Source: Psammoneis japonica (Eukaryota). Taken from it: a stretch of DNA of 64,000 bases. Below the pieces are notes generated by a model. The model was not told where the DNA came from and did no database searches. It saw only the letters and a program-made list of their open reading frames with translations. This document shows positions 28,431 to 54,083 of the stretch, piece after piece; position 1 is the first letter of the stretch; each line of letters opens with the position of its first letter. Position numbers and translations under genes: made by a program. Location: the NCBI GenBank assembly GCA_008632985.1, contig QPGO01000064.1, forward strand, positions 186,001-250,000, in the 5' to 3' direction.

Positions 28431-29281
28431 TCCTGATTTTTCGTTTTCTCCATCGATCTGCACCTTGATGGAGCAAGTACCCAAACAGTGTTCCGTCATT
28501 GTATTCGACACTCTATTGTTTAGCAGTAATCAATGAGATAAGGCAAACGACGACGGCAGGTTTCCCATCGTCGTGTTGTGATGCGTCGTTGGTTGTTGGT
28601 CGTGTGTTTCGCGCTAAATTATTACTGTAGAGTGCGCGAAACGTCAGAATTGCGCGTTGGCGAAAACCACAACTTTTTTTCTCTCCTCCCGCAGCCGCAC
28701 ATCCCGAGTTTTGCAATTGACGACGCTTTTGGCCTCAAACGGCGGCGAACAAGGCATCGGTAGAACCGTAATCATTGTAAGAACATGTGTATTGCTTTGT
28801 TTGTGAAAATCCGTAATGAATTCGTCGAGAAAAGTGAATCTCGTAGTTGTTTTGCGTGCAATTTCGCGTTGGGTGTTCCCGAGAACGCGATCACTTTTTC
28901 GATTTAGCGTTGTCCTTGTACGGAGAAACGCTGAATCGCAGCTTTGTTGTAACATGTATCTTGCCTATATGCTGGATCTTGGGATACATCTGTCTCGGCG
29001 TCACGACAAATCGTTTTATTGCTCATTTTTTGGCCGCTGCTGTGTGTTGTGTTTGCCAGAGCTCATTGTTGTTGCTTCAAAGAGGATCCGCTCCGGGCTG
29101 TCCAAGGCACGGAACGTCTCTTTATTGTGTTTAAAAGAGATTCGTTGCTTTGAATTTTTCAAAACGGGGATCTTGGCGTCGTGAAATCATCGCCAATCTA
29201 ACGGCATGTTTGCCTTTTTCTCGTCACTTGAAGTGCAGGCTTTGTCGAGTGTTGATTGTGGTCACAACCTTTCCACATCTC

Positions 29282-30820
29282 ATGGTGACAGCAGCTGAGT
29301 TGTTTGCTGCGGGGGAGGGTAACAATTTTGGAGAGGCACAAAGATGGGACATGACACATGGGGTTTGGGTTGCTCCCGGAGTTCGGCATTGCACGCACAA
29401 CAGGCCGAGTGCACCTGGACGGTGTGGTGGTGCAGCGCACGACGACAAGAAACTGCAGAAGGAGCATGTTGAGACTGCAATGGAAAAACTGGGGGACAAT
29501 GCGTGGCAGCATGCACAGAAGGATGGTGGGAAAATCCGTCTTCTCAAATCTGTTTGGGAAGAAGTTGATCAGATGTTTGGCCAGAGGATCAAGTGCAAGA
29601 CATTTTGTGACTGGTTTCACCACTGCCTTCAGCATGGTGAGACAAAAGCTGCCACTCACCGTAGAATGAACAGCTGGAAAAGGCGTCGCGGAGTGACAAC
29701 AAGAGCTGCATCATTTTCAGAGGCAGATGATGAAGTGCTGCTTGATGTCGTGAGAGAGAAGCCGCATCTCCATCTCGATGAAATGCAGCTTTCAATGAGA
29801 CGACGCCGGGGCATGACATGGCACCCCTCTGCCATGTGGCGTCAATTGCACCGACTGGGCTGCTCTCTTCAAAAAATGGTTTTTCGTTCAAGACAAAGAT
29901 GCGAGGCCAAGCAGGAGATGCACTTTCGACGGCTAGAGTTGTTCGTAGAAAAACCAGAGATGGCTGTCTTTGTTGATGAGATGGCAAAGAGTGCCAACGC
30001 ATCCAGGCGTTTGCGTGGCTGGGGAAAATTTGGCAAACCACCCGCAGTTGATGCACATTTTGAGGAAGATTTTTGCAAGAGGTGCACTGTGATTGGTGCT
30101 GCAGATGTGAACGATTTTGTGATCGAAGCGTGCATGCTGGCAGAACGTGAACATGGCCCTCATGATGATGACCCGGAACGTGGGGCTGTGGACATGGAAA
30201 GGTTTGAGAGATGCGTTGAGAATGATTTGGTGCCGGTTCCAGGGAGGTGTCATCTTTGCGAGCCGCGGTCTGTGGTGCTGATGGACAACGCATCGACACA
30301 CATCTCCGACTACGTTCGACAACTGATTGAAGATGCTGGAGCCAAGCCAGTTTACACAGCAGCTTGCAGCCCTGATTTGAATCCAATTGAGTGCTGCTTC
30401 TCTGTTTGCAAGTCCGGCCTGAAGCGTTTTTCTTATGAAGAAGGCATGAATTGGTCAATGGCGCACGAGCTGGCATTGGAAGAGATGACGCCACGAAAAG
30501 CTAGGAACCATTTTCGCAAGTGTGGGGCACCAGGGTGCGATGACAATCAGGAAAGGAAGACGGGGGATGCTGAGGAAGAATTCTTCCTCAGCTGTGTTGG
30601 AGGATTCAACACAGCCATTCGAGCAGCTGTGTCACACCAGACTGGACTAAAATGTGCAGTTGTGCTCCGTCTAGCCAATCCATCTAGAACGTGTGCGAGC
30701 AGCCATGACTGTAGTTTTAAAATGCCACCACACGTGGTTCATCTGCTGGCAGAGCACGGAGGCATCGGATGGTCCGTCCAGTCGATGACCAATCCATTTG
30801 CAGTGTGCGAACAGTCATGA
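29282..30820 (+). CDS. IS630/Tc1-family DD34E transposase, hypermutated (true start and stop uncertain)
   Basis: VFVDE ... VVLMDNASTH ... (Y>C)SPDLNPIE with 34 residues between D and E; HTH-like PHLHLDEMQ..WRQLHRLGCS. Confidence 0.9.
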   Translation: MVTAAELFAAGEGNNFGEAQRWDMTHGVWVAPGVRHCTHNRPSAPGRCGGAAHDDKKLQKEHVETAMEKLGDNAWQHAQKDGGKIRLLKSVWEEVDQMFGQRIKCKTFCDWFHHCLQHGETKAATHRRMNSWKRRRGVTTRAASFSEADDEVLLDVVREKPHLHLDEMQLSMRRRRGMTWHPSAMWRQLHRLGCSLQKMVFRSRQRCEAKQEMHFRRLELFVEKPEMAVFVDEMAKSANASRRLRGWGKFGKPPAVDAHFEEDFCKRCTVIGAADVNDFVIEACMLAEREHGPHDDDPERGAVDMERFERCVENDLVPVPGRCHLCEPRSVVLMDNASTHISDYVRQLIEDAGAKPVYTAACSPDLNPIECCFSVCKSGLKRFSYEEGMNWSMAHELALEEMTPRKARNHFRKCGAPGCDDNQERKTGDAEEEFFLSCVGGFNTAIRAAVSHQTGLKCAVVLRLANPSRTCASSHDCSFKMPPHVVHLLAEHGGIGWSVQSMTNPFAVCEQS

Positions 30821-33068
30821 CCAAAGTTTTGAAATGCCCCACCCACGCTTTGTCTGCTGGAGTGCGGAAGTGTCGGACAGTGCGTCTGCATCTTCCACCA
30901 CCAAGTGTAGAATGATTGGTTCTTTTGGTTTGTTGTTTTCATCTTTTGGCGCCGCGCGAAACAACTCCGCAATTGCAAGTGTCTTCAGCTCTTCCACCAA
31001 CCATGAAAGGACGCTTGTGTTGGTCAAAGAGTTCCAAAGGTGAATCTGCACCACCTTTTCTTTGCTGCGAACAGACCTCACAATTTCCTTTGACCAACTG
31101 CGAACATTTGCATCCATCAGTCTCCTGTTGTCGCAGATCTCGGTGCAAACAGTTTTGGTTGCTGAGAATGGAACCGAAATGCCCACGGTGCGTTCTGATT
31201 CCGTGTTGATCACATGGACAAACATTTCATCCGGAGCCAAAAAATGTCCACTTTTTGCTTCAGCCAGGGCCAGGACAGCTGCAGCTGCATCGACTTGGCC
31301 TTCCGCCATCCGTTCCATTGCTTTGTTCCTTCCCGCTTCATTTGCCACGTCCGGATCCTCACGGTGTGATTTGGGCAACCCGTTTCCTTGCACCTCATGC
31401 GCACCTCTTTGGATTGATCCGCCATGCCTGCCATCATCTTCGGTCATAGAAGGATGAACCTCTGGAGCCACGAGATCAATGTTCGGCCATGTGTCTGGCT
31501 TTTCAGGGTCCAGCTCACACGCCTCAAAAATGCACAACTGCCGTTCGCCGTCGATGGACATCCTGTTGCTCCAACACCGTCTGCATGCTTTCCAGTGTTC
31601 CAATGTGAGAGCATGACAAAAAGGGTTGCAATCAATGTCGGTGCCAACCAACTTTTTCATGAATTTGACAACTTCTCCAGGAGCCTCCGCGTCGAATTCT
31701 CACGTTTCTCTTGCAGTGCGGGGTTTCACTGCTTTCTCGGGAGAGAGCAGTGCTGCAACTCTGTCATCCTGGGAGCTGGGAATGGATGGTTCCTCATCAT
31801 CATCCCACGGCTCATCGGTTTTCTTCTTCTTTCCAACAGACAGACGAAGGAAGGCGCATTTTGGATCCCGTGCCTCAGGCGGTTTGCTTTTTGCCTTGAC
31901 ACGCCTGTGAGCTTCCAAAAACAAATGCTCAGCAGAGTTGAGAAGCTTCACTTGAGCTTTTGAAAAATCCTCCATGAGCAACAATGACGACTTCTTTCCC
32001 ACGCACGAGTTCCCATCTTTGTCCTTGTGCCGTTGATCCTCGACAGCCGCGCGCAACACAGTGCTGCACACGAGACTCCATTGAACCCTGCCACCATCAG
32101 CCGATGGTTCTAGAGTGGCAACATGCTGCGCGTCTTTCTTGTCTGCAACAACATGCGTTCCATCCTTGTTCGTTGCAGGAGGCAAAAGGCACAAGGCCAA
32201 TGACAGCTCTTCGTCTTGTGTTCCTCTTTTCCTGGACACTTGCCCCGTGCTTGTTCCGTCTTGAATGTTCCCAACAACACAGATCAGGTCTAGAACAACA
32301 CCAGAAGGGTCAGACTGACTCCCATCATCAGCCATGTCTCCTTCGTCGTCACAGTTCTTGTACGACACATGAGTCAGAGCATGCATCCAATGCGCCTCTG
32401 CAACCATGGGCGTTGCACGGCTTGAACCGCACTTGCCTGGAGGATCCGCCATCTGGGGGTCAGCTCTGCAGTGTGGCTTTGAGTTTGAAGTCTTGTGCGG
32501 CATCAGTTTCTTTCCTTCGGCAGAAAGGAGTGCGTCCAATTCTGACTCGACTTCTTCCATGGTGGAGCCAGTGCCGAGTGATGCAATCGACACCAAATCC
32601 TGCCCTCTGTTGGGTCCATCGTGAAAGTCAAACGGGGTGGTGAACTTGGGACTGCTTGTTTTTCGTTCATCGTGCAAGCACAACCCAACTGTGACATGTG
32701 AAGCATCCAGATCACAGATGGTGCACTCTCTCTTCCAAATCAATGGATGCATTGCCGGAATCTGAACGCGACCCGGGTGTCTTCTTGGATGACGATGATG
32801 ACTTTGAGCTTCTCGACCTGGAAGAGGAGGATTTCTTTCCCGATTTTTGTCTGTTGGCATTAGAGAAAATGCTTGGTGTTTTCAACAATGCGCCCGCATC
32901 GTCACTGTCTGGTGACAACGGGAGATCCAACCGGTGCTTTCTTCCACGGCTGTCACCGCGTTTCTTGCGGGCTCTGGCTTGGTCCTTTCTGTTCTCTTCA
33001 CCCAACCTAGCTTCCACTGTTGGTTGCCTCTTCCTAGATGAAGTTCGTTGAGAGATGGATTTCTTCAT
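30815..33068 (-). pseudogene. Second, convergent gene of unknown function inside the transposon (broken into three ORFs)
   Basis: Contiguous coding-like ORFs 32712-33182, 31700-32860 and 30815-31660 on the minus strand, with a basic N-terminus (MKKSISQRTSSRKRQ). Confidence 0.6.
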
Positions 33069-33885
33069 GGTGCCACGTGATGCAAAACCCACACTCAAGG
33101 AACGAGAAAAGGTAAACATGCCGTTAGAGCCATGACAGACAGATGCTGCGGCAACAACACCGACGATACACAACGATTTCACGACGCCGAGATCCCCGTT
33201 TTGAAAAATTCAAAGCAACGAATCTCTTTTAAACACAACAAAGAGACGTTCCGTGCCTTGGATGGCCCGGAGCGGATCCTCTTTGAAGCAACAACAATGA
33301 GCTCTGGCAAACACAACACACAGCAGCGACCAAAAAATGAGCAATAAAACGATTTGTCGTGACGCCGAGACAGACGTATCCCAAGATCCAGCATATAGGC
33401 AAGATATATATTACAATAAAGCTGCGATTCAGCGTTTCTCCGTACAAGGACAACGCTAAATCGAAAAAGCAATCGCGTTCTCGGGAACACCCAACGCGAA
33501 ATTGCACGCAAAACGACTACGAGATTCACTTTTCTCGACGAATTCATTACGGATTTTCACAAACAAAGCAATACACATGTTCTTACAATGATTACGGTTC
33601 TACCGATGCCTTGTTCGCCGCCGTTTGAGGCCAAAAGCGTCGTCAATTGCAAAACTCGGGATGTGCGGCTGCGGGAGGAGAGAAAAAAAGTTGTGGTTTT
33701 CGCCAACGCGCAATTCTGACGTTTCGCGCACTCTACAGTACACGCTAGGGGCCCTAGAACAGTGAGCAGGGTGAGCGCAGAGCTCTGCTCATTTTTTTTT
33801 CATTTATTTATTGGCGATCGATCCGGACACATTGTTTGTTTTCCCTTTTGAGTTTTGCTCGGCATTGTACTGTGTTGTATAATGA

Positions 33886-35295
33886 ATGATGATCCGCCCA
33901 GCACAGCTACTACAACACAAAAACGAACTCCATCATGACCCAAACTGGTTTCCCGGCACGATGAGGATTCGAAAATTGGTGCTCTTCATGTTGTGCATCT
34001 TCATCTTGTGCCGAGTACTGCTTTCAGTCTATGGCCCTCCTCTGATAGCCACAAGCGGAGAAGCCATATTATCTAACGATCCTACCCCTGAGTTACTGCT
34101 AAGTGTCCCTTTCTACGTCTACGAGGAGCTGGCGTGGGTCAACGCAACTTACGGAACGTGGCCAGTCAGCAAACATGCGTTACACTCCCGACATGAGCAG
34201 TACGACACTCGCTTCAACCACGGGGACGATTACTTTTTCATGAACGCGAGCTTGAACCACCCCATGCGGACTCGAAACGTTGACGAGGCAAAGTTATTCT
34301 TTGTCCCCTGGTTATATAATTATTTTGTAATGACTATCGCGTGGGGTCGTCAAAAAACAAACCATCTCTGTTGGAATGGTAGATGTGATAATGAACTGCT
34401 GAACTATTCCCAGAAAATTCTACGAGATTCTGAGGCCTTTCAGAAGTACCCAGAGCGTCACGTCATGGTACGGTCCCATTTTGCCTCGGCCGGGTTTTGG
34501 TCAACTGATTTTCACAACTTCACAGAAACACATATTCCAGGTTTGAACGAGCTTGTCGAGAAGACATCAGCAGTCATTTTTGAAGACGCGGAGCCAGAAC
34601 GGAAATCAGAAAATCAACAGTTTCTGCCTTCATACTATGTGGGATCGAATTGTGGTGACAATTCGTCCAAAGAAGAAAAGCGATATGATGTCGCCATGAT
34701 TGGCAGCATGAGAACCCCCGACCAACCACAGTTTGATGATCGACGAAATATATGCAAGTGGTTGGGCAACTCTTCCACTATCAAGACGTCGGTGTGTGGA
34801 GAGGGGTCCCGCTGTCCGGCTCTGTGCCAGTCCAAATTTGGATTCCATATCCGCGGTGATTCTTGGGGGAGCCAACGAGCAATGGATACGATCTTGAGTG
34901 GATCGGTACCAATATTTACTAATTCGCAGCAGTATCGAATTCTTGGCGACTGGATTGACTGGAACCAGCTCACTTACTTTTTTCCTATTCACGATGAGTC
35001 ATCTTATGGAGCCAAGTACAACGTGACTGGAGAAACTTTCTTGGAGAGGTTGCAAGACATAATCGATGACAAAGAGGGCTATGAACGCAAACACAAGGCG
35101 GTTTTGGAGAATGCTCCGCTGTTTGATTATACCACCGTATATCCATTTGATACTTATATGTATTTATTCCAAGCAAGGTTGTTTCCAGAAACCCGTCAAG
35201 CGAAGAGCAGGTGGAGTGCATTGAAGTTGCCACCTCTCGTACAAGGAGAAAATGGCAAGCCAGTCAACCAAAGGCTTCGAAATAACAATTCATAA
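33886..35295 (+). CDS. Exostosin-family (GT47) glycosyltransferase
   Basis: Type II TM anchor, PFYVY, HPMRT..EAKLFFVP, SKFGFHIRGDSWGSQRAMDTILSGSVPIF. Confidence 0.85.
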   Translation: MMIRPAQLLQHKNELHHDPNWFPGTMRIRKLVLFMLCIFILCRVLLSVYGPPLIATSGEAILSNDPTPELLLSVPFYVYEELAWVNATYGTWPVSKHALHSRHEQYDTRFNHGDDYFFMNASLNHPMRTRNVDEAKLFFVPWLYNYFVMTIAWGRQKTNHLCWNGRCDNELLNYSQKILRDSEAFQKYPERHVMVRSHFASAGFWSTDFHNFTETHIPGLNELVEKTSAVIFEDAEPERKSENQQFLPSYYVGSNCGDNSSKEEKRYDVAMIGSMRTPDQPQFDDRRNICKWLGNSSTIKTSVCGEGSRCPALCQSKFGFHIRGDSWGSQRAMDTILSGSVPIFTNSQQYRILGDWIDWNQLTYFFPIHDESSYGAKYNVTGETFLERLQDIIDDKEGYERKHKAVLENAPLFDYTTVYPFDTYMYLFQARLFPETRQAKSRWSALKLPPLVQGENGKPVNQRLRNNNS

Positions 35296-35599
35296 AATAA
35301 TGCCTGGCACGTCAATTGCGAGTAGAAACCTTTAAAAACAACTAGCAATGACTGGAAATGCTATTTTTACGTTGCCACGTACTTGGGCGAACCAGTTGTG
35401 TCTGCGTTGTTGCCACATCGTTGTCGATTCCAGATGTCTCTCCTGTGCTCTGGGTGGTGCTGCACAGGGCCACCAGCAAAGCTTCCCGTCATGCCATCGT
35501 ACCACGGTGATGCAGTGTAACAATGCCACCTGTTGAACAGACCACGATGTGTGCTCTGGGCCCGGCTGACTCCCCGCCGCTCCCCATCACTGGGCAACT

Positions 35600-37500
35600 G
35601 CCCACAAACTGCAGAGCACACTGGCCACATGCCATGACCAGGAGACATCAGCATGGCACCATTTGAGGGAGTTGCACCCTGTGATCCACTGCCTGAACAT
35701 GTGGTGAAAAGTCCAATCCCATGCCATCAGCCAAACTCACCATCCACACATTCATGCAGCACTGCTCCCATGTTGTTGGTGGTGCTGTGAACTGCAGCAC
35801 CTGAATCTGCCACACACTCTCTCTCATCTTCCAACAGCTTCAATGAGGCAGGGGGGACTTGGTCCCTTCATTTCTGTGTGAAAGTGTCTCAACATTGGCC
35901 CCACCACCAGTGCTGGCTGCCCCCATCTTCTTGCATGACTGTGGTTTCTTTTTGCACCACTCCGCCACACCTTGCTGACATCATTGGGGTCAGCCCAGTT
36001 GTCAACCCCCCCAGCACAGTCAGTTGAGATGCCAGACTCAGTGAAGCCTTTGTGTTGCAAGGACGGCCATCAACCAAAATGGGGCTCTCTTTGTTGTCGT
36101 TGTTGTCACACATGGTGGCTTGGTCATTGATGTTGTCATTGGCATCATGATTGCCTGCTTCATTGTCAGCATCATCTCCACACAACTCATCTTCTGCACT
36201 GTCATCATCGTTGGATGCAGTGACAGTGAGATCATTTCTCACCTTGGACAGTGGCTGATTGCCATCTTCTGGAAGACATCCCTTGCAATGCTGCAGGTGC
36301 TTGGATTGGATGGAGTGATGCAATGATGTGAAGAACAGGGAGACTCTCACCTTTCACACAAGTGTTTGCACGGCTGCAATCAGGGCTGAGTGCACTGCAC
36401 CTGAGACTGAGACAGTGCCTCATTGACAAGGTGGCACACCGCGCAGTGGAGAACACCAGATTCTGTCTTGTCAGAGAGCTGCTGTGCTTCTGGCGCCAAA
36501 CTTTCCACCCTTGGAAGCCTCTCCTTGTTCTCTTGCCACCCCTGCACTGCTCTTTTGGATGCAGCTGAAATGCTTTGTGACCCTTCCTGTGGCAGCACAG
36601 CACTGTGCATCATCAGCTCCAGCCAAACTGACTTCATTGACTTCATTTTCTGGTTCTGAGACAGCACCACACATGGTCCTCCACAACTGCACCACACACG
36701 CTCTTGCATGCATTGCTCCTTGACTTCAACACATTTCCTTTGAGTCTTTGCTCAGTGAGCTGTGAGCACCAAATCACACTCTTTTGGCACTTTCTCAAAT
36801 GCAGCTGCAGTCAGCTCATCCTGGCAAATCTCAAAACTCATGGAGTTGTGCTTGTCCTCAACTCCACTCAACTGCTCAAACAACTTGCTTGGCATGTCTG
36901 TCTTCCCCATGATGGAGATTTTTCCCAGAGCTCTGTGCTTCACTCAACTGTTGAAATCAGGTCCTTTGGCATGTGCATCTCATGCATGGCCAATGCAATC
37001 TTGCAGGCCAGTCCTCTGGGCCAATCAGTGCTTTGGGACTTGCTTACCAATCCTGCCAATCCTTCAGTGGTGGGTGTTTGTGGTGGCCACAGCAATCCTT
37101 TTCTTGACTGCTTTTGCAGACTTTTCTCCATCATCAGTCATCTCATCCAAGGCTGCACTCTCAGAACTTGGCACATTGTCTGCCTCAACAGATGTGCACA
37201 AAGCTGAAGCAAATCCAAGCACATTTGCACAAGCACAACAAACAGAAGTGCACCCACCACAGCTGAAGAAACTTGCTGTGCCCCCTCTGAGCCTGTCAAA
37301 GGCAGCCCCTGTGTCAACAGGGCTCAGCACCTTTCAACGCAACTTTCTTCTGAAAAGTCACGCAGCGCAAGGCTCTCTTCCAACTTCTGTGTCCCAGCAG
37401 ACTTCCCCCCCCAGACTTCTCCTCATTGGGACCAAGCTGCAGTGCAGGATTTGCTCTCTGTGGGACTCACCATGTCATGGGGTTCACAACCAAAACTTCT
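35600..37500 (-). mobile_element. Older degenerate Ty1/copia gag-protease remnant
   Basis: WPRGLACKI..PKDLISTVE..PSKLFEQLS (gag), C..C.RKGHKA knuckle, VWVADSGAAVH protease motif near 35800. Possible PBS GGTT(A>G)TGAACCCC at ~37479-37491. Confidence 0.65.
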
Positions 37501-38573
37501 CTCCAACGTGGGTGGGTGAGCTCATTGCTGCTGGTGCCCTGCTTCGTTGCTGTTGACGATGATCCTGTGTCATTGCTGCTGTTGACGATGATGATCCTTT
37601 TGCTGAGGAGGAAGTTGCTCTGGTTGGCACAAGTGTTGAAGCAAGTGAGAAGCCAAACAATGGCTTGAACAGCCCACCAGATGTGGGAGCGCCAGTGGAT
37701 GATCCAGAAAATTGCATGGATGATGTGCTGCTGCAATGAGCAGAGGATGTCGGGATGATGTTGTTTTGTTTTGTTGTTCAACAGAGAGAAGGAGAGGGTG
37801 GAGGAGAGAAACCCTTGGCGCTGATTCTGCTTTTGCTGTTGATGACAATTCTGTTGCCAAGGAGGAATTCATTCTGGCAGCAGACAAGGAGCTTGGCCAT
37901 GCCTTGAATGACACGTGGCAGATGCGGGAGAGCCGGCGGACACAGCTTCTTTTGGAAGGAACCTGTCATGGTGGGCAATGATGGTCATTGCAACATGACA
38001 GCATTCTAGGAGAATGCAGAGTTTTGCCAGATGACAACGTTGATCCAGTGGATGTTGTCTTTGTTGTTGCAAAGAACGAGGAGAAAGCAGCCTGTTCTGT
38101 GCTGTCTCTTTGAGACCTGGGCCCGGAGCAACGCGCTGCGTCTTTTGTTTGTCTGCGAGTAAATCCAGCTGCCGAACAGGCTCAGCCACTCACAGTCTTA
38201 GTGCGACAGCGTGAACACAACCAACAAGATGCTTCTGGGCCTGTTGCAACTACAACAGATGCAACAAGTGAGACCGATTGGTGGTCATGGTCACTTTCCC
38301 ACCGATGCCACGTCACAGTCCCGCCACTTCAACTCACAGAGCGCACTGGACAGTCTCTGATGCATTGGATTTCACTTGGTCCCCTCGAAATGTGCCTGAC
38401 TCGTAAGGCACAATTCGATCCAATGCTGTGTTGGCAGTCCAACTCAAACAATCTTGACTTGTCAATCGACATAAAAACCCTTGCCAGGGAAAAGTCGCCA
38501 ATCCTCTGTGCATGGTGCAAACCCTCACTGGGGAAGAAACTCACCACCACTCCACGCATCCGTCTCAATGCGT

Positions 38574-41500
38574 GAACTTGTCCAACAGAAAATTCCGTCT
38601 GACAGACGACATGACCTTTGTGAACAGATCGCCAAGGTTTGTCTCTGTTCCCTCCTTTGCAATCCAACAGTCCCCGCAGCAACAGCTTCGCGGTTACGGT
38701 GACACGCAATGGAGTGATGCTTCTTCTTGAGTGTAGACTCAGGAACAGAGCAATTCTTGCAGACGGCCTCATTGTCACAGAAGACATTTGTTGGCCCTTC
38801 GATCGGTGCCCCAAACATTCAAAGCTTACATCGTAGACCCTCTGTGAGCTCGATGGCATTCTTGAGTGCAACGATCTCAGCCCCAAATGTGCTGGCCTCC
38901 ACGGCATTCTGACGCTTCGAGTGCCACACGATGGGTGCCCGATTGACAAACATCAAGACACCTGCATGGCTGCGACGATCGGCAACATTTCCGGCATGGT
39001 TGGCATCCACAAAACAATGTGTCGACACCACATTGCCTCGGGCTGGTGGTGCATTTGTCGGGATGGCTTCTCTTGCATCTCGGTGGAAGTCGCGCCAGTC
39101 GCACTTCACGAATCGCGATTCATCGATCTTGGGATGAGCCGGATCAAATGCTGCTTGGCGCTTTGGAACCTGTTTGAGGTGTGCAAAGACATGCAGCACC
39201 TGTTCCAGATGACCAATGCGAGGAAGAGCGAGGTGAGCAGACATTGACGAAACCTCCAAATGGATGTCCACTCCACCGAGTTCCACAGCCCAAACCAGTG
39301 CACCAATCAGCTCTTGACAGCAGTGAAGTCCTTCAGCGTCCAGTTTGCCAGCAGTGTCTAGCTCGGGTTTGCATCCACTGCTCAATGGGGTTGTCACCTT
39401 GCCAGGCAGATGTTTCCCCTCCTTGCCAAGCCTGTCCTCTACATTTTGGACAGCGGACTTGCAGCACTTCTCTGCAGACATTGCCCAACAGGTGGTCCCA
39501 TCGGCCAAAGTCATCCTGGAGAGTGCAGCACCGAGGTGAGAATCCGGTTCGGCCACCTTGTCACCCTTGAGCTTGAACTTGGACCTGATGCCGTCCATCG
39601 TCTTCATGGGTTCGTGACTGATCGACAGCACGTCGCCCACATAAACTAGAACGCATTCGCAGTGCTCGAATCCGTCGGGTTTCACCGCAGGTCGCATCCA
39701 TGCATCTGGATCAGCCTTGCTCAGTTTGTGCCCTGGGATCACAAAGCGTCTCCGCCAGGAATGCCCTGAACGCTGCTCTGGAGCTCTTCAATCCATGTAG
39801 AGCCCTGACCACAATCATGATGCAACCTTCATCCTCGCCAAACTCGGAACCTGCCCTGGTCCAAATCTTCTCCCTGCAAGGGGCAGCAAGGTGGGCGTTC
39901 TGGATGTCACGTGCAAAGACTTGTGAGTCATTGAGTTGCAGCAAGTGTCAGTGCAATCCTCACCGAATCCCGAGAGATGACAGAGGAGCAAGTGATGTGT
40001 GCGGGGGTTTCAGCAGTGTGGCCTCCAGCCACCATACGAGCTTTATGGTGGAAGTTTTCTCCCAATTTGACATCAAAAATCACATGGCACTTCACTTCCT
40101 GGAAACCAGGCGCCATGTCCTTAAGCTCCCCTTCATGCTTGTCAAAAGCAACCTGCACATTCTTCATCTCCATGCAAATGGCGTCCCACCACAGGGTGTT
40201 GCCATTTGCGCGATCGATCTGGATCGCCTCCTCGACACTCTTTGGGATCCGCATGCCAAACTTGTGTGTTCGTAGCCAATGCTTCGACTTGACCTTCGCA
40301 GTGGAACGCTTGCGGGTTTTCATGACATGAGGAACCCACCAAGCAAACGCTGCTTCATTCGAGATCTTGTGCTGAATGGCAAACTCGGCAACTTGGACTG
40401 GGAAGCTCTCCTTCGCAATCTTCAAGTCGATCCAAGTCGCACTTCCGTCCTTCCATTGGAGTGGGAGTTCCCATCCTTTGGCAGTCTTGCGCCTCTTCTG
40501 AACGCCTCGCTCGGTCTCAAAGAACTCGGATTCAGGAACGTCCCCGTTGGTGCGGCAATCAACGATCTCGTCAAATGAGACATGCCGGTTTCCGTCCTCA
40601 TCGATCTGAGCAAACATTCATGGCGATGGAGTTAGCAGAGAGCACAGCATGGTGCCCATCAGGGTGCTCCACCTCATGCATCCTTGTGTCAAGGATGGGA
40701 TTGTCATTGGCTGTTCCTGTCGGAATGCCATTGGCGTCTCTCAACCTCTTCATGACACGAGCAAACTCAGGACCGTCATCATCTCTTGGAAGCGCAACTT
40801 CCATGTTAAGGTGTCCCCAGTCCGCCACCTCCGGTGAGGCTTCCTCGTCTTTCTTGTCGTCATCGTCATTTGTTGCCTCCTCTGAGGACATGACACGATC
40901 ACACTCATCGAGGAATTCATCGTCGTATCCAAGGCGGTCTTTCCAGTCTTCGGGACTGATCTTGCGATCCTCGTCGTCGGGAAAGTCTTGCTCCTTCAAC
41001 CGGCGCTTGATCTCCTCGTCAAAACTGTCAAACTTTGCCTTTTTCTCTTGAGCAGCGGCTTCTAAATTGGTGACTCGTTGAACAGAAGTTCTCGAAATGA
41101 CACTGCCTGTCTGTGTCAAAACGTGGTGCGACATGAGACTCCCTGTTCTGTGAGATGCACCAAGCCACCTGCCAAGCTTCTCGTCCCCCAGACCGGCATT
41201 CTCCCTGTGCCAGACCCAATCATAAAATCCAAAGTCAAGGCACTCCGAGATGTCCACGGTCTCTCCGAGAATGTTCTCCAGTGGCACTCCAGCATCCAAA
41301 TGATGGGCTCTAAGGAATGTGCGAGACATGGTCTCACATGTCCACACAAATCCACAGTCCCACAGTCGCCGCGGCACTTGCTTCTTGACCATGATGCGGA
41401 ACCACTTGCGTCTGACCTCGCGCACAACCCCTTCTGCAGGATTCTGGTTGTGTCGATTGGGTTCGACGACATGACAATCTGTGCCCTCCTTGCGCACAGT

Positions 41501-42798
41501 CTTCATGAACTCCGTGCCAGGTTTCGTTTGCTCCTTAGATCCATCCATCAGGAGTTTCTCTGGCACGCCAAATTCCTGGCAAAACGTCTTGAGAGCCTCG
41601 CCAGCCTTGCTCTTCTTGTCCATGGGATAAATCGAAGTGAAGTGTTGCTTGTTTGTAAAGATCTGGGCATGTCGATTGCCCTCCAACGAAACCACCTTGC
41701 CATCAACCGTGTCGGTTGCCCATTCACCCCGTAACCCAGGCTTCATGAACATCCGATCGGCCCGGGCAGCGTCAACCCATTGGCATCAATGCTGACCTGA
41801 TGAGCTTTTGCGCAGTCTTCTTGAGCGTGTTTGCTGCTTGCTTGAGTCCCACGCACCATCGTTCACTCAAGTCAGCAGCCGATGCATCACTGTGTCTCTC
41901 CTTTGAACATGAATGTCTTCGGGAGTGCTGAGTCTTCAGGTCCTTCGCCGATTGTTTCCGTGGCAGAGATCTGGGCTGTTGACTCCGATTCCACATTAAC
42001 GGCATCTGTGAGCCTCAATTGGACTTGATCGACTCCATGAATGAATCGCTCATCGCAACAGTCCCCGGATTGAGGGTTGCTGTGGGCAGGATCGGCTTTG
42101 AACTCGTGTGTCAGATTGGTGTGGATCGTCGCAATTGACCGAACTAGCTCCATTTCCTCCTCCGCAGATTGTCGAGTTCCAACAGATTTGAACCCAACGG
42201 TCTGTGGATCCCAAGGTTGTTGGGAGGTCATCTGGATCTTGGGGCATTCGTGCAACTCCTGTTCTGCAGGAGTGCGAGTCGCCGCAACGATGTTGGCCCC
42301 CACAGCTTCAAGCGGCATCATGAATGATCCATCCTCTGTGAGGACACACAGTGGTGAATCGGAGCAGGGGTTGTCCTGAACCTCAACACCAAAGTGCCGC
42401 AGCTGGTTTGGGTTGACCAGCGAGTGCTCCATGGACTCCGGCATCCACAAGCCCTCGTGGAAGACCAGAATAAAAGTTGCTCCCGATGTCGGTGACGTCC
42501 ACGCCGTGGCTGCCGAGACAATTGGGACACTCTTGATGGAATCGCATCCCTTGTTAAAAGGCGATGCGTCACATTCTCGTCCAGAATGACCTGAGAGAGT
42601 AAAGTTTTGACCCAAAACAGTGGTGTCAGCATGCGAATCCATTTCAAGGTGTCCATGTTGTGCCTTTCTCATGTCACGGATGTGAGTGATTCGTGTGGTG
42701 TCAGACCGCGTTGCCGAGACACGCCGTGTCGACCTCACAGACGCGTTCATTGCAGCGACATGGACACTGCTCCTTTGATCGATGTGGCTGTCCCCCAC
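38574..42798 (-). pseudogene. Copia Pol (protease, integrase, RT, RNase H), frameshifted
   Basis: EMDSHADT (PR); TDT..DGSKEQ..QNPAEG (INT); KARMVAGGH, DIQNAHL, ALHGLKSS, LVYVGD (RT); FVDANHAG, STFGAE, CDNEAV, KKHHSIACH (RNase H). Confidence 0.92.
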
Positions 42799-42859
42799 CC
42801 CAATGCAGCAACCACAACAAGAAGTTTATGATGCAACAAAGCAGGGTCCAGCTTGGCAG

Positions 42860-44287
42860 TCATTTGTTCTTTCCTCTGCGCTTTTCGCTGCGACCACCGA
42901 ATGCGTCTCCGGCATTGTCTCCGTCTTTGCCGCCAGCCCTTGATTCATCATCACCAGAATCGGCGCTGGCATTGGTGTTCAGGGCGGAGATTTTGCGGTT
43001 CGCTTCTTTAAGCTGCAATGACAGCTTCCGATTCTTCTTCTTGAGCGACTTTACGGATGCAGCACGGCGTTTGGTTGGTTCAGGTTGTTTGGCAACACCC
43101 AGACGCACGCACTCGTCGACAACCTTCTGTTTGTCCTCCTTGCTCAACTGGTGCCAATTTTTGTGGCATCCAGTGTCAATGGATCCATCCTCATCATGGA
43201 TGGTGCCACCCTCTTTTCCTCCTCCAGAGGCGACTGCGGCAATCGCACGACGATGCGCAATCGTCTCTGGAAGGGTGGCGACTTTGGCAGCAAGATGATT
43301 GGCCGCCGTGGTGAACGTGATGCCTCCTCCAAACTCATTCTGTGCCTTCAAGGTCTCAACTGCTGCTTGCAGTGATTGGTGCTGCGTCTTCTCAAAAAGG
43401 ATCCACAATTTCTGGGCCTCCGTTTTCGGTTCGTCGTTCTCCTCAAAAATGTCAAACATTTCTTGGAGCTTGTTGACAAATGATTCAAATGGCACAGCAC
43501 GCTCACTCTTGCAATGGAGGGTGTTCTCCATGCGCTCGGCTTCAGAGACACGGCGGGAGGCATTTCCTTCTCCCTGGTGATGGTCACACAACGCCCTAAA
43601 GTCAACTCGTCCGTTCTGCTCATTCTTGTGGTCTTTCAACCATTGCTCACTGGGTGTGCCCGTGGCAAGGGACTCGATGAGCAAATGAACCATGCGAGTG
43701 TCAGCCTTGAAAGCTGGGCCTTGGAGGGGTGCACATGCAATGCACTTCTGGACAAAAGTGTTGTGGCCTTGGGGTTCAGGTGCATCGTTTTGACGCATGC
43801 AATGCACTGACGGCACGCCAGAGACTCCCAGCATGACACCAAGCACATTCGTCAAGCCGGTGCTCCACTTGGCCCAATCCTTTTCGCTCTCTAACATCCC
43901 GGGTGACGCCTCTTTACTGAGAGAGTCAGCAGTGGTCTTGGTCTGGGAATGGATCTCGGCACGACTGAGTGCCGTCTGGAGAGCAGCACGGAAAGTTGCC
44001 TGGTCAAGCCCATCCAGAGCAGGGTTCTCGCTCACACGACCAAAGTCCTGCACCCAATGGATGAGAGCTTTGAGTCGATGACCATGGGCCAAACCAAAAT
44101 GAATGCGCCCTTCAGCAACCGTCCTCCTAGCGTGTGATGATGCGAGAGAATCGATGTCCTCTTCCTCGAGGTCTTCCAAATCATCAAAAGACGCAAAGTC
44201 CGCCATGAGCGAGACTCGTTGAGCTGGATCAACAAATCCGATCCATCTGAGAGCTGTCTTGATGGGATCCGGAGGAGCTGCCGCCAT
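42860..44287 (-). CDS. Copia Gag
   Basis: 475-aa ORF downstream of the 5' LTR; RLKALIHWV, GVP...R, D.R.VH.LI, LH(Y>C)K.ERA, AGDAFGG. Confidence 0.85.
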   Translation of the reverse strand: MAAAPPDPIKTALRWIGFVDPAQRVSLMADFASFDDLEDLEEEDIDSLASSHARRTVAEGRIHFGLAHGHRLKALIHWVQDFGRVSENPALDGLDQATFRAALQTALSRAEIHSQTKTTADSLSKEASPGMLESEKDWAKWSTGLTNVLGVMLGVSGVPSVHCMRQNDAPEPQGHNTFVQKCIACAPLQGPAFKADTRMVHLLIESLATGTPSEQWLKDHKNEQNGRVDFRALCDHHQGEGNASRRVSEAERMENTLHCKSERAVPFESFVNKLQEMFDIFEENDEPKTEAQKLWILFEKTQHQSLQAAVETLKAQNEFGGGITFTTAANHLAAKVATLPETIAHRRAIAAVASGGGKEGGTIHDEDGSIDTGCHKNWHQLSKEDKQKVVDECVRLGVAKQPEPTKRRAASVKSLKKKNRKLSLQLKEANRKISALNTNASADSGDDESRAGGKDGDNAGDAFGGRSEKRRGKNK

Positions 44288-45608
44288 GGTGGCACCTACA
44301 CCAGCAGGAAAACAGAGTCATGTGAGAAATCATAAATCAAAAGGATGTCTCGGTCTGTGTTGACGACAACACACAGCCATTGGAAGCATGGAGACTGGCC
44401 ATGTCTCCTCACTGCTTGTGCATTCACTGATGCCAGGCAACGATAATCATCATACACCCTTCGATCGACCGGCGTTCGTTGTCACAACCCTGCCACATTG
44501 GTGCGATCGTCTCTTCACAGTTGTTCAATGCTTTTCGTCAAACCAAACCTGAGTTGACGACTTGGCTCTGACAAAGCGAGTAAATCTAGCTGCCGAGTGG
44601 GCTCAGCCACTCACAGTCTTAGTACGATAGCGCGAATACAACCAATAAGATGCTTCTAGGCCTGTTACAACTACAACAGATGCAACAAGTGAGACCGATC
44701 GGTGGTCATGGTCACTTTCCCACCGATGCCACGTCACAGTCCCGCCACTTCAACTTATAGAGCGCACTAGACAGTCTCTGATACATCGGATTTCACTCGT
44801 CTGAAACTGGGCGTGTCGTGCGCACACCGCAAGGATTCATCAGCATCGATCACGCCATTTCTTGTTGATGCGTTCGAGTTGAACAAACGAAAACGCCAAC
44901 CATGACGAATGAAATTACCCACCGGATTTGTGGTTCGCTGAGGTCTCTCATCCCGAACGTAACTTCCATTGGTTGACCGCGGTGAAAAAAAAAAAACGAG
45001 TGCTCAGCGTCAAAATTTGCCTTGTGACAGATGAAGACATGACTGGTGAAATGTGTGTGACGGTGGTGTGCATGCAGCATGCATGCATGCAAGCAGTCTA
45101 CAATGCATCTATCCTCTGTCAATTTATTTGCCTGGGCCTGGGTTGTGCTTGTCTGACTCACCTGGTAACGGTTGCGAACGAAAAGAGTTCACGAGACGTT
45201 TTTTTTTGGAATTCCGATCAATGAGATCATATTACACCACAAAGCACAAAGCACGTTTCGACTGTCTGTCGAGGGCGGTTAAGCCAAAGCACGATTCGGC
45301 AGTCAAGGCTCACTGCTCGAATCAGAACTTTGAACCAAGCATGTCGAATGTAGAAGTGGCAGTACAAGCCCCAATCCTACGGCAGTCGAGTGACGCATTC
45401 AACATTCAAATAACAAGCACGATTCGCAACCATCCGCCGGTATAGTACCACCTGCCAGAACTTCACACAATTCCTGCTGAACACTGAACACCAAACTATT
45501 CGTAAGTACTTTCAAGGCAGATATCCAAACATGGCCGTATAGCTACACTCTTACATGACTAGTTTTCTGATATCTCCTTCGTCTGCAAGCACAGATTTTT
45601 GAACAAGA

Positions 45609-48792: not shown

Positions 48793-49989
48793 GTTGAAAC
48801 GCGATAGTAATAGGGAGGTGCGGGTCGGAATCGATATCGAAAGGCAGTAAGGATCGGATTTGATTTGCAGCCGATGGAGCCGATGGCAGAGCGGGTTCTT
48901 ATGCCGCCATGTGGACTATGATGGCCATGGCCGATGCATGCGGTCATGGCACATGGCACGCGTGATAGCACGTGCGGGCGTGCGCGCAGCAGCAGGGCTG
49001 CCGCGGCATGTCTCAAGATCGCAATGCGGGCGTCACGTCATGTCATTGACCTTGACTTTGCTTGAACCTTGAATGTGCAGTGCCGGCAGATGCCAGGATC
49101 ATTGTGTGTGTGTGTGTGTGTGTGTGCTGACTGACAGTCACACCGGATTTTTCCAACCACAGCAGTCTATTTGTGCAAGTCACAACACCCCCACCTGATC
49201 ACCTGTGCCCTCTCACACACCACAACCTTGGCAGAGGTGCTGTTTCCTGCTGTTGTTGGGACTCAGCATCAAGAAATGTTGCCACCTTCAAAAGTGTGTC
49301 TCTGTTTCATGTCACACCCACCCAGCAGACGTGTTGATTGCCAGCTTCTTTGCTGCAAGCCTGCCAAAGGTCAAGTTGCACCTCACATCCTGTGCACCAA
49401 GCTCAGCACCTTGAGATTTCGGGCTGATGAGAGAACAAAAATGATGCCATTGAAGAGCTGCCTGTGCTCAGCTTTCACGTGTGTTGTGTTGTTTCTCTCT
49501 TTGTTCAGCTCAAATGCAGTTGGCTTGTGGAGCAACTTTGGCAACTTTCAAGTGGTGGAGAGGTTTGAACCTTCTCTTCTGGGGCCTGCTGTTTTGACCC
49601 CCTGCTCTAGAAATCATTTGGCACGCAGGGCGAGATGGCGCCATTCAATCATCTGCAGCACCCCAATTGATGATCTGCGCAGTTTTGTTTTTGTGCCATG
49701 GAGATCTGTTTTGGGAACCTGGGGAGGCATCTTTGGACCGAAGTGAGATCATCGAAGAGGCAGTCCAATTGCCAGTGCATTTGGGGGGTGTCCCAGCACA
49801 ATTTGTGCACACAAGAAAACACAGGATCTGTCCAGCTTTCCCAAATGCCCAATTGCACTGGATTGACAAACTCTTTAGTGTGCAAATTCCACGCAACTTT
49901 CTTTGACACTCTCACTTCCAAAGATGTCTCCCAGACCTTGGTGCGTGGCTTTCTCTGACATGTGGAGAGATCCAAAAACATCTTGGAGT

Positions 49990-51385: not shown

Positions 51386-51942
51386 CTGGGGGTTGATTGC
51401 TGAGTGGCAGCAGGTGAGCTGAACTTCAAAAAGCAACATGCTGGGAGAGTGCCAGGTGTGTGGAGTTGTTTTGCAGTGGCAAAACAGCTTGAGGAGGAGA
51501 GTGTGGAAATTGTTCTTTGCAACAGCATTTTTGAAAAAAAAAAAGAACTGTGGTCATGCATGGAGTTGGGTGTGCAGAGAATGCCCACCCTTCTCTCTGA
51601 CAAGAAGCAAATTGCCACTGGCACTCAGACCAGCATGGCATCCAAACAACCCTCTGCAATCTTCTGCAAAAGAAAAACTGGTGCACTCACAGTGCAACAA
51701 GGAAGAGCTGCACAGACAGCGGGCATGATTCAGCACCCACTGGCAGAAATCCACTGCTGCAGCCAAACAGAATGTAGTGTGCGCGAGCACAGACCAAAAC
51801 AAAAACACAAAATCACGTGTCACAATGACGTTGTTGGCCCAGATGACTTGACACCCCCAAATGGGTTTGCAGCGCATTTTTGCTGTCAATCAACAGCCTC
51901 AAAGTGGCGCTGAATGAAGCACACATTGACCCATGCTGCGAT

Positions 51943-52724
51943 CTGGGTTGATGTTGGAATTGGTCAAATTGTGGTGTGATGATGAGACTGGTTAGTTGAC
52001 TGGCATGTTTGGCAATGGGAAGCATGAAAAATGACATGGATTGAATTGTTGCAACACAACAATTCTGGGGCTGTTTGACATTGTGAGCTGGGCTCCAGAG
52101 TGCAAATCAATGCTGCTGGACACAGAAAAGGAAAGGACTCAAGTGTTTGTGGCTGCATTGTGTGTCACAAAAGGATTGGCTCAATGAGAAGATCATTTTG
52201 AAAGGAGAGTCTCTTTGCATTGTTGTCAGTCATGCAACAAGGACACAGTAGATTGTGGCAGGGGCGTGCTGTTGTCATGCAAACAGCTGGTTGGCACAGC
52301 TGAGCTGTGTGGTGCCTGATGCAACAAAGCTGCTGGGTTGATGTTGGAATTGGTCAAATTGTGGTGTGATGATGAGACTGGGTTAGTTGACCGGCATGTT
52401 TGGCAATGGGAAGCATGAAAAATGACATGGATTGAATTGTTGCAACACAACAATTCTGGGGCTGTTTGACATTGTGAGCTGGGCTCCAGAGTGCAAATCA
52501 ATGCTGCTGGACATAGAAAAGGAAAGGACTCAAGTGTTTGTGGCTGCATTGTGTGTCACAAAAGGATTGGCTCAATGAGAAGATCATTTTGAAAGGAGAG
52601 TCTCTTTGCATTGTTGTCAGTCATGCAACAAGGACACAGTGGATTGTGGCAGGGGCGTGCTGTTGTCATGCAAACAGCTGGTTGGCACAGCTGAGCTGTG
52701 TGGTGCCTGATGCAACAAAGCTGC
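51943..52724. repeat. Near-perfect ~390-bp tandem duplication
   Basis: CTGGGTTGATGTTGG starts at 51943 and 52333; the copies differ by 3 substitutions and 1 indel. Confidence 0.92.

Positions 52725-53689: not shown

Positions 53690-54083
<394 letters not shown>

Follow-up and report, generated by a model that had tools for sequence, protein, structure and literature searches.

The window, a stretch of 64,000 nucleotides from the pennate diatom Psammoneis japonica (contig QPGO01000064.1), carries mobile elements and repeat blocks next to host genes. Positions 29282-44287 had been taken as a single object in a preliminary description, and this was not borne out, as the span holds a DNA transposon, a host gene, an older repeat block and a Copia element. 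The features are listed below in window coordinates, with TA and CG counts as observed/expected.

20250..24400, no strand: block poor in TA (20/165) and CG (92/234)
28623..29188, plus strand: left TIR of the DNA transposon, 566 nt, TA density normal, lightly hit
29150..30820, plus strand: transposase ORF, 556 aa, with DDE_3 and a weak HTH_33
29189..33174, no strand: hypermutated interior of the DNA transposon, TA 25/159, CG 181 against 225 (a mild drop)
33175..33740, minus strand: right TIR of the DNA transposon, TA density normal
33886-35295: host gene (GT47), normal, its start 147 nt past the right TIR
35450..38150, no strand: older repeat block without recognisable coding capacity, TA 4/107, CG 36/152
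38151..38155, no strand: left copy of the TSD GTCTG
38156..38377, minus strand: 3' LTR of the Copia element, with 11 TA and 3-4 CG sites lost by mutation
38690..42798, minus strand: Copia pol split over six frame pieces (protease, integrase, RT, RNase H)
42860..44287, minus strand: gag-like ORF, 475 aa, no Tyr
44576..44798, minus strand: 5' LTR of the Copia element, almost free of mutations, 12 TA per 200 nt
44799..44803, no strand: right copy of the TSD GTCTG
49000..54700, no strand: block poor in TA (12/227) and CG (58/321)

The retroelement is a Ty1/Copia LTR retrotransposon. Its LTRs (222-223 nt, 92% identity) are accompanied by the 5-bp TSD, and 21 Copia polyproteins were found by tblastn to be collinear with the window over 38.7-42.8 kb, with the integrase before RT-RNase H and an RT of the RVT_2 type. 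PF07727 is present in the homologues of the pol region, and the window's own pol pieces gave no Pfam match at E 0.01; this copy has at least five frame changes plus in-frame TGA stops, one of which was a CGA to TGA change. The homologues show an affinity to diatoms (Fragilaria crotonensis names), and the assignment is shown at the Ty1/Copia level, with CoDi as a putative clade name. For the ORF of 475 amino acids no Pfam family was found, and the label gag-like comes from its position and from a conserved ORF upstream of pol in relatives; matches to it occur at 47 of the 80 relatives' loci, and the Atlas clusters closest to it consist of hypothetical proteins from diatoms. The Copia insertion site is the right edge of the older repeat block.

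The other element, about 5.1 kb long, is a DNA transposon of the Tc1/mariner-IS630 type (DDE_3), as identified by its profile match, its TIRs and the flanking TA. Its transposase ORF matches PF13358 (DDE_3) with E 1.8e-16 in Pfam and has two homologues with 47-49% identity. The earlier naming of a 556-aa transposase stands as to identity but not as to length, since the ORF is overextended at both ends and the homologues have 456 and 458 aa. The TIR arms (98% complementary over 566 nt) differ at 10 sites, nine of which are TA/CG against TG/CA or TG/CA swaps and none of which is a transversion, and the outer ends both read TA followed by CTGTAGAG. No Pfam match was found for the remaining two ORFs of this transposon or in the blocks at 20250-24400, 35450-38150 and 49000-54700, the last of which contains tandem repeats of about 190 nt and a (TG)n run.

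The TA depletion of the blocks was confirmed as real and lies far above chance. Over five blocks, 105 TA steps were observed against about 911 expected, and Poisson P was below 1e-39 for each of the blocks 29189-33174, 35450-38150 and 38151-44500 (44 observed and 253 expected in the last). TpA has an observed/expected ratio of 0.0-0.17 in the blocks, CpA and TpG show a 1.4-2 fold enrichment, and CG is likewise depleted. The gain in TG and CA equals the loss of TA and CG, leaving the total of pyrimidine-purine steps unchanged (TA, CG, TG and CA together number 239-249 per kb in four blocks, and host DNA has 242 per kb), and TG and CA differ in number by no more than about 10%. The TA loss is limited to domains with sharp borders, which coincide with the bodies of the transposons. 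The block edges were resolved to about 100-200 nt, and the host gene lying between two TA-poor blocks has a normal composition.

At the protein level, the six motifs with an altered tyrosine that had been noted beforehand are all present, CSPDLNPIE at 30365-30391 on the plus strand and QNAHL, ALHGLK, ITCSSV, SIACHR and LRCKL* at 38696-39996 on the minus strand. The absence of Tyr from the gag-like ORF was confirmed, as were the 3 Tyr of the transposase ORF together with abundant Cys (27) and His (29) in its 556 aa. Over eight TE ORFs, all of which end in TGA, 8 of 2929 codons (2.7 per 1000) encode Tyr against 38 of 1475 in host ORFs. As proposed, the depletion is specific to the TEs, with normal Tyr and TA in the neighbouring host genes; the host ORFs have 22 Tyr in 469 aa and 14 in 552 aa, and a third one, acidic and of low complexity, has 2 in 451 aa.

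Comparison with relatives gave the polarity of the change. Tyr content is 2.8-4.8% in 21 full-length Copia polyproteins. In pol, 2 of the 18 conserved Tyr columns are kept and the others read His (8), Cys (7) or Phe (1), against 273 of 305 (about 90%) kept among the remaining conserved columns; with 60 closer homologues as the reference, Tyr is retained in 1 of 10 columns. The transposase keeps 1 of 12 (8 Cys, 3 His) and the gag-like ORF none of four (3 His, 1 Cys), with 72-86% of the non-Tyr conserved residues kept in these two ORFs. Nine unmutated relatives each keep 11-18 Tyr columns, with a single Cys/His among all nine, and TA observed/expected is 0.44-0.88 in 79 of 80 environmental relatives against 0.09-0.17 in the Copia element of the window. 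A Tyr-poor, Cys/His-rich state was also found in an unrelated metagenome contig (L041), so that at least one further source exists, and in 6 of 150 database proteins. Homologues have Tyr at the affected sites and the LTR pair agrees, in line with the proposal that Tyr to Cys/His polarises the change, and its reading as a loss of TA is supported. The accompanying claim of inactivation by missense changes, not stops, was correct for the TA arm only, from which no new stop can arise; the copy also has frame changes and TGA stops, the CGA to TGA change among them.

The LTR pair shows 17 differences, and at 16 of these the 5' LTR has TA or CG where the 3' LTR has TG or CA. By class, the 17 comprise 11 TA sites, 3-4 CG sites, one TG/CA swap and one other transition, without any transversion in 222 nt, and the 5' LTR has retained TA at all 11 sites lost from the 3' LTR. 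In the 3' LTR, the 11 TA-site changes and the swap fall on about 15 sites, against one other change at about 190 positions; by this indirect ratio, the TpA process runs far faster than ordinary mutation. With 11 TA sites and 3-4 CG sites lost, TA also disappeared faster than CG. At least part of the TA loss followed insertion, the LTR differences alone being strictly post-insertion, and the Copia interior could have been partly mutated in the source copy before transposition.

Further evidence on timing came from a public run with short-read-like contigs (X1), which is possibly from the same sample as the assembly and is not independent proof. One X1 contig joins 38150 to 44799 exactly, with a 5-nt overlap, and represents the empty insertion site, so that the Copia insertion is absent from another haplotype or strain. 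An LTR divergence of 8% in an insertion with an empty allele makes dating by LTR divergence invalid here. Across the older repeat block, X1 contigs have 0-1 differences at single-copy depth, and depth in the TA-free unique block is 58-60 against 55-66 in host DNA. At several sites all X1 contigs differ from the copy in the window, and adjacent CA/TG swaps distinguish the window from other copies, i.e. independent hits. The window stretch gave nothing in run X3 and almost nothing in run X2.

The neighbouring bases matter. Against 79 relatives, TA survival was 0.03 at RTAY, 0.19 at mixed and 0.32 at YTAR sites (chi-square P 1.3e-4), and L041 shows the same order. On the strand of the changed A, the process favours TA with a pyrimidine next to it on the 3' side (5'-TAY, equal to 5'-RTA on the opposite strand). 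At mixed sites the predicted product was present in 13 of 18, which is marginal (one-sided P about 0.05), and in blocks B and C2 the composition-based product-class excess was without the bias of the TAY model, in a setting where the ancestral composition is uncertain and CpG decay feeds the same classes.

The 5' LTR and both 566-nt TIRs are spared, although repeated. Element ends beside host gene starts are spared in three cases, as judged from ORF starts, not from mapped promoters. The parallel CpG loss and the spared element ends go beyond what the preliminary description contained.

A real, in-situ, TpA-specific mutational process acting on transposon domains is, in our judgement, highly probable. 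It would amount to a targeted hypermutation, at the DNA level, of resident TE copies in the chromosomes of a pennate diatom, in which TpA would be turned into TpG or CpA (A:T to G:C transitions) on both strands about equally, with a slower CpG to TpG/CpA decay running alongside. The target domain may be silenced, 5mC-marked transposon chromatin, and the CpG decay would then be ordinary 5-methylcytosine deamination in the silenced domain. The TpA arm is probably enzymatic. A deaminase-fold enzyme that turns adenine to hypoxanthine in DNA at 5'-TA is the likeliest candidate for it, with a chance that we put a little under even. The outcome would be a permanent missense inactivation (Tyr to Cys/His, Ile(ATA) to Met/Thr, Val(GTA) to Ala); the TA arm would create no new stops, and TAA and TAG would be erased.

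A comparable case was reported in 2026 for the chlorarachniophyte Bigelowiella natans, in which integrated DNA of NCLDV and virophages undergoes hypermutation specific to TpA (Mettrop et al., bioRxiv 10.64898/2026.01.13.699255). According to the accessible text of this preprint, de novo mutations occurred at TpA only, giving TpG/CpA, the de novo rate in mutation-accumulation lines was about 1000 times background, and TpA-poor coding sequences were enriched for DDE endonuclease and reverse-transcriptase domains (10.64898/2026.01.13.699255). The signature in the window matches this and appears to reflect the same kind of process. As far as the accessible text allows a comparison, both cases share near-exclusive TpA to TpG/CpA changes, local domains of foreign or mobile DNA and an effect on both strands; the rate is orders of magnitude above background in B. 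natans and, going by the indirect LTR ratio, probably so here. Unlike B. natans, which belongs to the Rhizaria, the host here is a diatom (Stramenopiles), and unlike the NCLDV region reported there (TA observed/expected 0.45), the transposons here are near saturation. A G:C to A:T component (CpG to TpG/CpA) also sets the window apart from the published account and is most simply seen as a separate 5mC effect; given this component, the two cases may not be identical. In its accessible text, the preprint makes no mention of CpG, trinucleotide context or diatoms (10.64898/2026.01.13.699255).

The CpG component resembles the 5mC-driven CpG decay of plants, vertebrates and diatom TEs, as CpG is turned to TpG/CpA inside TE domains. 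Diatom TEs are methylated by DNMT5a, as stated in the accessible part of PMC9998398, and CpG decay of methylated TEs accounts for the CG deficit in the old blocks (36/152 and 58/321). TpA, in contrast, cannot be removed by the 5mC route.

For the TpA arm, a thymine-modifying enzyme is an alternative to adenine deamination that would leave the same signature. A TET/JBP-type dioxygenase or another such enzyme would mark T in 5'-(R)TA in silenced chromatin, and the resulting 5hmU/5fU-like base would mispair with G and lead from T to C. Kinetoplastid base J and dinoflagellate 5hmU favour TpA, 5-formyluracil mispairs with G, and in double-stranded DNA 5'-RTA for T is the same as 5'-TAY for A, so that the sequence cannot separate the two. 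We regard this route as unlikely, though not negligible: literature matching 5-hydroxymethyluracil and diatom is, going by titles, mainly on dinoflagellates, and the authors of the B. natans work prefer an ADAT2-type adenine deaminase in the accessible text (10.64898/2026.01.13.699255). The 5' U preference that is typical of RNA adenosine deaminases, according to the accessible discussion of the same preprint (10.64898/2026.01.13.699255), might point to ADAR- or ADAT-like A to I editing of TE transcripts, fixed by reverse transcription. This is very improbable, as a single RNA template could not give rise to the differences between the LTRs of one insertion, and the asymmetry of the LTRs contradicts RNA editing. 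Moreover, the strands are equally hit (8 His vs 7 Cys in pol, TG about equal to CA), and the targets also include non-coding repeat blocks and a cut-and-paste DNA transposon. APOBEC3 (G to A) and ADAR (A to G) have replication intermediates or RNA as their substrates and affect the two strands unequally. The process in the window is like such restriction in that invading nucleic acid is inactivated by mutation in a dinucleotide context, and differs from it in that both strands of a resident copy in the chromosome are affected, the DNA transposon included.

RIP in ascomycetes changes C to T at CpA, enriches TpA and makes many stops. With RIP the window shares dense in-situ transitions at one dinucleotide, permanent TE inactivation and a scar readable from dinucleotide ratios. 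A RIP-like mechanism, in which duplicated DNA is sensed by homology and then mutated, would suit targets that are multi-copy (about 35 copy-equivalents of Copia and about 2-6 of the DNA transposon in X1), and the DNMT4 enzymes of diatoms are relatives of fungal RID, as far as the accessible part of PMC9998398 goes. It is improbable all the same, since the direction is opposite: RIP makes TpA from CpA, whereas here TpA is destroyed (observed/expected 0-0.17), CpA and TpG are enriched and the TA arm produces no stops. Furthermore, RIP mutates all duplicated copies above a length threshold, whereas the repeated 5' LTR and TIRs are spared here, which is evidence against homology sensing; the chief target in B. 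natans exists as a single copy, according to the accessible text (10.64898/2026.01.13.699255). A native composition, i.e. families that avoid TA and CG by selection and in which Cys and His are normal, could draw on the fact that TA is under-represented (0.44-0.88) in normal relatives too. It hardly comes into question, because relatives have Tyr at the same columns, the copy carries frame changes and stops, the element's own 5' LTR contains 12 TA per 200 nt, and it is precisely at the affected sites that other copies depart from the window. GC-biased gene conversion and a general decay of unconstrained DNA were rejected, as AT, AA and TT steps are unaffected and TA in the adjoining host intergenic DNA is normal or high. 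Base-calling or consensus errors at modified bases, with TA read as TG or CA, have to be considered because the sequencing chemistry of the assembly and of X1 is unrecorded and X1 is perhaps the same sample. Such an artefact is nevertheless most unlikely. X1 k-mer contigs agree through the TA-free unique block (0-1 differences) with undiminished depth, strand-discordant calls would split k-mers, and the Tyr-poor, Cys/His-rich state recurs in L041 and in the 6 of 150 database proteins; according to the accessible text, the B. natans case rests on Illumina reads (10.64898/2026.01.13.699255).

In a literature search, with subscription journals mostly outside its coverage, no report was found that describes TpA loss for the transposons of diatoms. 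The accessible parts of the work on SPLASH (PMC9258296) describe no TpA loss, and those of a paper on Phaeodactylum tricornutum histones (PMC4504042) describe no TpA loss. New here are the 5'-TAY strand preference, the added CpG decay and the spared TE ends beside host gene starts. TpA hypermutation is so far known from one chlorarachniophyte, and a scar on ordinary TEs of a pennate diatom would mean that it is not a single-species curiosity. The scar could then be traced by comparative genomics, in a search for deaminase or dioxygenase families common to scarred genomes. A candidate enzyme would have to act on both strands of resident chromosomal DNA, with a preference for a pyrimidine 3' of the changed A, to respect domain boundaries to about 100 nt and to spare element ends near host gene starts.

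Returning to the DNA-level process preferred above, diatoms and chlorarachniophytes might, quite tentatively, have in common an undescribed defence enzyme system that is aimed at silenced chromatin and edits 5'-TA(Y) via A deamination or T modification, so that a transposon would be destroyed while its insertion is still polymorphic. If true, the shared system would resemble RIP as a defence while working by the opposite chemistry, might be widespread across the SAR supergroup, and would provide a natural A-to-G editor of double-strand DNA. A natural A:T to G:C enzyme working in chromatin would also be relevant to base editing. On the level of annotation, ORF predictions are inflated in the TA-free blocks because TGA is the sole surviving stop.

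Dinucleotide counts along the 64-kb window revealed a near-absence of TA in four stretches with sharp edges, with AT steps unchanged. One of the four comprises an old repeat and a Copia element, which were treated separately, giving five tabulated blocks, for which expected TA was derived from the other 41,111 bases of the window (host DNA; 1635 TA, 39.8 per kb).

TA and CG dinucleotides in the TA-poor blocks, observed / expected
20250-24400: TA 20 / 165; CG 92 / 234
29189-33174: TA 25 / 159; CG 181 / 225
35450-38150: TA 4 / 107; CG 36 / 152
38151-44500: TA 44 / 253; CG 325 / 358
49000-54700: TA 12 / 227; CG 58 / 321

The TA deficit was significant in each block (Poisson P < 1e-39), and that of CG was strong in three and mild in two. 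The gain in TG plus CA equals the deficit in TA plus CG, and the sum of all four steps, 242 per kb in host DNA, amounts to 239-249 per kb in four blocks and 267 per kb in the fifth, the one with a (TG)n run. A constant pyrimidine-purine sum is the outcome that transitions inside such steps (TA or CG to TG or CA) would have. Blocks 20250-24400, 35450-38150 and 49000-54700 had no Pfam match. The features recognised are:

28623-33740: DNA transposon with terminal inverted repeats (TIRs) of 566 nt, 98% alike; TA adjoins both outer ends
30815-31660, minus: long ORF in the DNA transposon, 281 aa, 0-1 Tyr
31700-32860, minus: long ORF in the DNA transposon, 386 aa, 0-1 Tyr
33886-35295, plus: host gene GT47, normal, between two TA-poor blocks
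38156-44798, minus: Ty1/Copia element with 222-nt LTRs (92% identity), flanked on both sides by the 5-bp duplication GTCTG
28266, minus; 33886, plus; 45609, plus: starts of host ORFs beside spared element ends

The Copia pol aligns collinearly with 21 full-length polyproteins and is broken into six frame pieces. Upstream of it lies a 475-aa gag-like ORF that fell into no Pfam family; of 80 related loci, 47 carry a relative of this ORF in the position upstream of pol. The DNA transposon ORF matched DDE_3 (E 1.8e-16), and the 281-aa and 386-aa ORFs had no Pfam match; these two may be either genuine passenger genes or products of stop erasure. In contigs of two public runs (X1 and X2), window position 29593 is joined to 31000 on opposite strands, indicating further copies of the DDE_3 element rearranged relative to the window copy. 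GT47 has its nearest relatives in raphid pennate diatoms (Cylindrotheca, a Bacillariaceae MAG and Nitzschia), at no more than 56% identity, which places the window in a diatom absent from the protein collection and not in Bigelowiella.

The preliminary description had proposed that Cys or His in place of Tyr polarises the change as loss of TA, and all six peptide motifs on which it relied were found where it had placed them. The Tyr depletion was also borne out, with no Tyr in the 475-aa ORF and 3 Tyr, 27 Cys and 29 His in the 556-aa ORF. Eight transposon ORFs contain 8 Tyr codons among 2929, compared with 38 among 1475 in three host ORFs, and Cys and His codons reach two- to threefold the host frequency. 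ATA is missing from the eight transposon ORFs, GTA occurs 3 times versus 17 in the host ORFs, and all eight terminate with TGA. Conserved Tyr columns were then compared with homologues, using for pol the 21 polyproteins (323 columns with at least 70% agreement among at least 12) and for RT-RNase H the best 60 of 120 closer homologues listed (55-64% identity).

Conserved columns kept in the element proteins
pol: Tyr 2/18 (replaced by 8 His, 7 Cys, 1 Phe); other columns 273/305
RT-RNase H: Tyr 1/10 (5 His, 4 Cys instead); other columns 129/143
Transposase against its only two homologues: Tyr 1/12 (8 Cys, 3 His); other columns 146/203
gag-like ORF: Tyr 0/4 (3 His, 1 Cys instead); other columns 118/138

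Further substitutions were consistent with TA loss, namely Val(GTA) to Ala(GCA), Ile to Met or Thr, and Thr to Ala over codon borders. As controls, the 21 polyproteins contain 2.8-4.8% Tyr, and none of the 120 closer homologues among the matches listed fell below 1.7%. Nine related metagenome loci kept 11-18 Tyr columns each in the same test, with one Cys/His in total. TA observed/expected was 0.44-0.88 in 79 of 80 related loci and 0.09-0.17 per kb-window in the window Copia. The proposed polarity was thus upheld; the accompanying idea of inactivation by missense load rather than stop codons carries a caveat, in that frame changes and TGA stops, one of the latter in-frame in place of an Arg (CGA to TGA), additionally disrupt this Copia copy.

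LTRs of one insertion are identical when inserted. Between the two Copia LTRs there are now 17 differences (single positions or position pairs), 11 of which read TA in the 5' LTR and CA (6) or TG (5) in the 3' LTR. Another 3-4 read CG in the 5' and TG in the 3' LTR, and the rest comprise one TG/CA swap and one other transition. The 10 differences between the two TIRs are of the same kinds (4 TA versus TG/CA, 3 CG versus TG/CA, 2 swaps, 1 other transition). Transversions were found neither between the LTRs nor between the TIRs.

Run X1 covers the stretch at a single-copy depth of about 55-66. Its contigs show 0-1 differences from the TA-free unique block 35205-38150 at undiminished depth, so the TG/CA calls are not an accident of the assembly consensus, although X1 may be the sample from which the window was assembled. 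Copia depth sums to about 2000, equivalent to about 35 copies of at least 90% likeness, and the copies differ by about 100 changes per transition type versus 5-11 per transversion type. Many of the 40 differences listed are TA or CG versus TG/CA, and several are adjacent double changes (CA versus TG between copies), the pattern that independent mutation of the same ancestral TA or CG in each copy would produce. X1 copies also carry 1-2-nt indels exactly at the pol frame changes 40613-40616, 41764-41768, 41902-41906 and 38663-38666, making at least three of five frame changes private to the window copy or its subfamily. One contig runs from 38150 directly into 44799, the two sides overlapping by 5 nt, and is otherwise without difference; this is an empty site, and the Copia insertion is therefore lacking in another haplotype or strain.

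The process is a TpA-specific change from A:T to G:C that occurs after insertion, within limited domains and on resident DNA, with CpG decay alongside. It is fast: in the 3' LTR about 80% of the TA sites have changed, versus one among about 190 remaining positions, and yet an empty allele of the insertion persists. As the LTRs of this insertion have already diverged by 8%, dating by LTR divergence would grossly overestimate insertion ages in this genome. TA outpaces CG, with 11 TA sites changed in the LTR versus 3-4 CG sites; losses are 83-84% of TA and 9-20% of CG in two younger elements, and 88-96% and 61-82% in three older blocks. Both strands are affected, since His:Cys replacements are 8:7 in pol and 3:8 in transposase, and TG and CA counts differ by at most about 10% in four blocks.

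Measured against 79 unmutated relatives, TA survival in the window Copia was 0.03 for RTAY, 0.19 for RTAR/YTAY and 0.32 for YTAR (chi-square P 1.3e-4). An independent locus, the metagenome contig L041, gave 0.06, 0.30 (mixed) and 0.75, and the context order was identical in all five blocks with host DNA as baseline. Per strand, the changed A tends to be followed by a pyrimidine (5'-TAY) or, equivalently, the changed T to be preceded by a purine (5'-RTA). Sites favoured on only one strand carried the predicted product in 13 of 18 cases (4/5 LTR sites, 9/13 Tyr codons; one-sided binomial P about 0.05, by hand), and all three Tyr codons surviving in pol are t-TAT. Product classes derived from bulk composition gave no clear sign of the expected bias.

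The TIRs and the 5' LTR, although parts of multi-copy elements, retain normal TA, and beside each spared end, at a distance of 147-810 nt, a host ORF starts and reads away from the element. These three cases suggest that the spared ends may be protected by open promoter chromatin and that the mutated domain would be silenced chromatin. In Phaeodactylum, Copia elements bear H3K9me2/3 and H3K27me3 (PMC4504042, in part) and 5mC is deposited by DNMT5a (PMC9998398, in part).

The asymmetry between the LTRs, the symmetry between strands and the mutated state of the DNA transposon exclude RNA editing. Homology sensing of the RIP type is disfavoured because repeats are spared and the chemistry is opposite to RIP. 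The CpG arm would be 5mC deamination, and the TpA arm is probably enzymatic. For the latter, DNA adenine deamination via a candidate deaminase-fold enzyme is tentatively put at a little short of an even chance. The bacterial tRNA deaminase TadA has the target U-A-C-G, similar to 5'-TAY. A modified thymine with subsequent mispairing appears rather unlikely, and some other mechanism takes up the remaining probability.

A comparable process was described in Bigelowiella natans, where according to the accessible parts of a 2026 preprint (10.64898/2026.01.13.699255) two integrated viral regions yielded 231 de novo mutations, 230 of them A to G or T to C and all 230 at TpA, at about 1000 times the background rate. 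It also reports 324 TpA-poor coding sequences enriched for DDE and RT domains and puts forward ADAT2 as a candidate; the words CpG, trinucleotide and diatom are absent from the accessible main text. The diatom adds a second host lineage to this only just described type of process. It differs in concerning ordinary transposons and reaching saturation, and adds detail on context, CpG co-decay and boundaries. No report of TpA loss in diatoms was found in literature mostly lacking subscription journals. At the sequence level, the Tyr-poor, Cys/His-rich state is found elsewhere too: L041 (5536 nt; TA observed/expected 0.24) kept 2 of 17 conserved Tyr columns (8 Cys, 6 His), and 6 of 150 database representatives have less than 1% Tyr with 3.4-5.9% Cys and 4.4-6.8% His. 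L041 is an independent Copia relative, 55% identical in RT-RNase H.

Erasure of TAA and TAG leaves TGA as the sole stop in TA-poor blocks. Mean open stretches are 34-37 aa in blocks (20250-24400, 29189-33174, 35450-44500, 49000-53550) compared with host values of 26-29 aa. ORFs of at least 100 aa reach about 1.5 times the host density; they occur on both strands and overlap. Over-prediction by gene callers would be expected there.

The (TG)n run is pure, about 500 nt long (53600-54083), and lies within a TA-/CG-free block; it terminates at 54084, the sole N of the window, and accounts for the spike in GC skew at 52-54 kb. At 50090-51200 and 53100-53360, copies of about 190 nt stand in tandem; they are 71-81% alike, differ mostly by transitions and look like a satellite with independently mutated copies.
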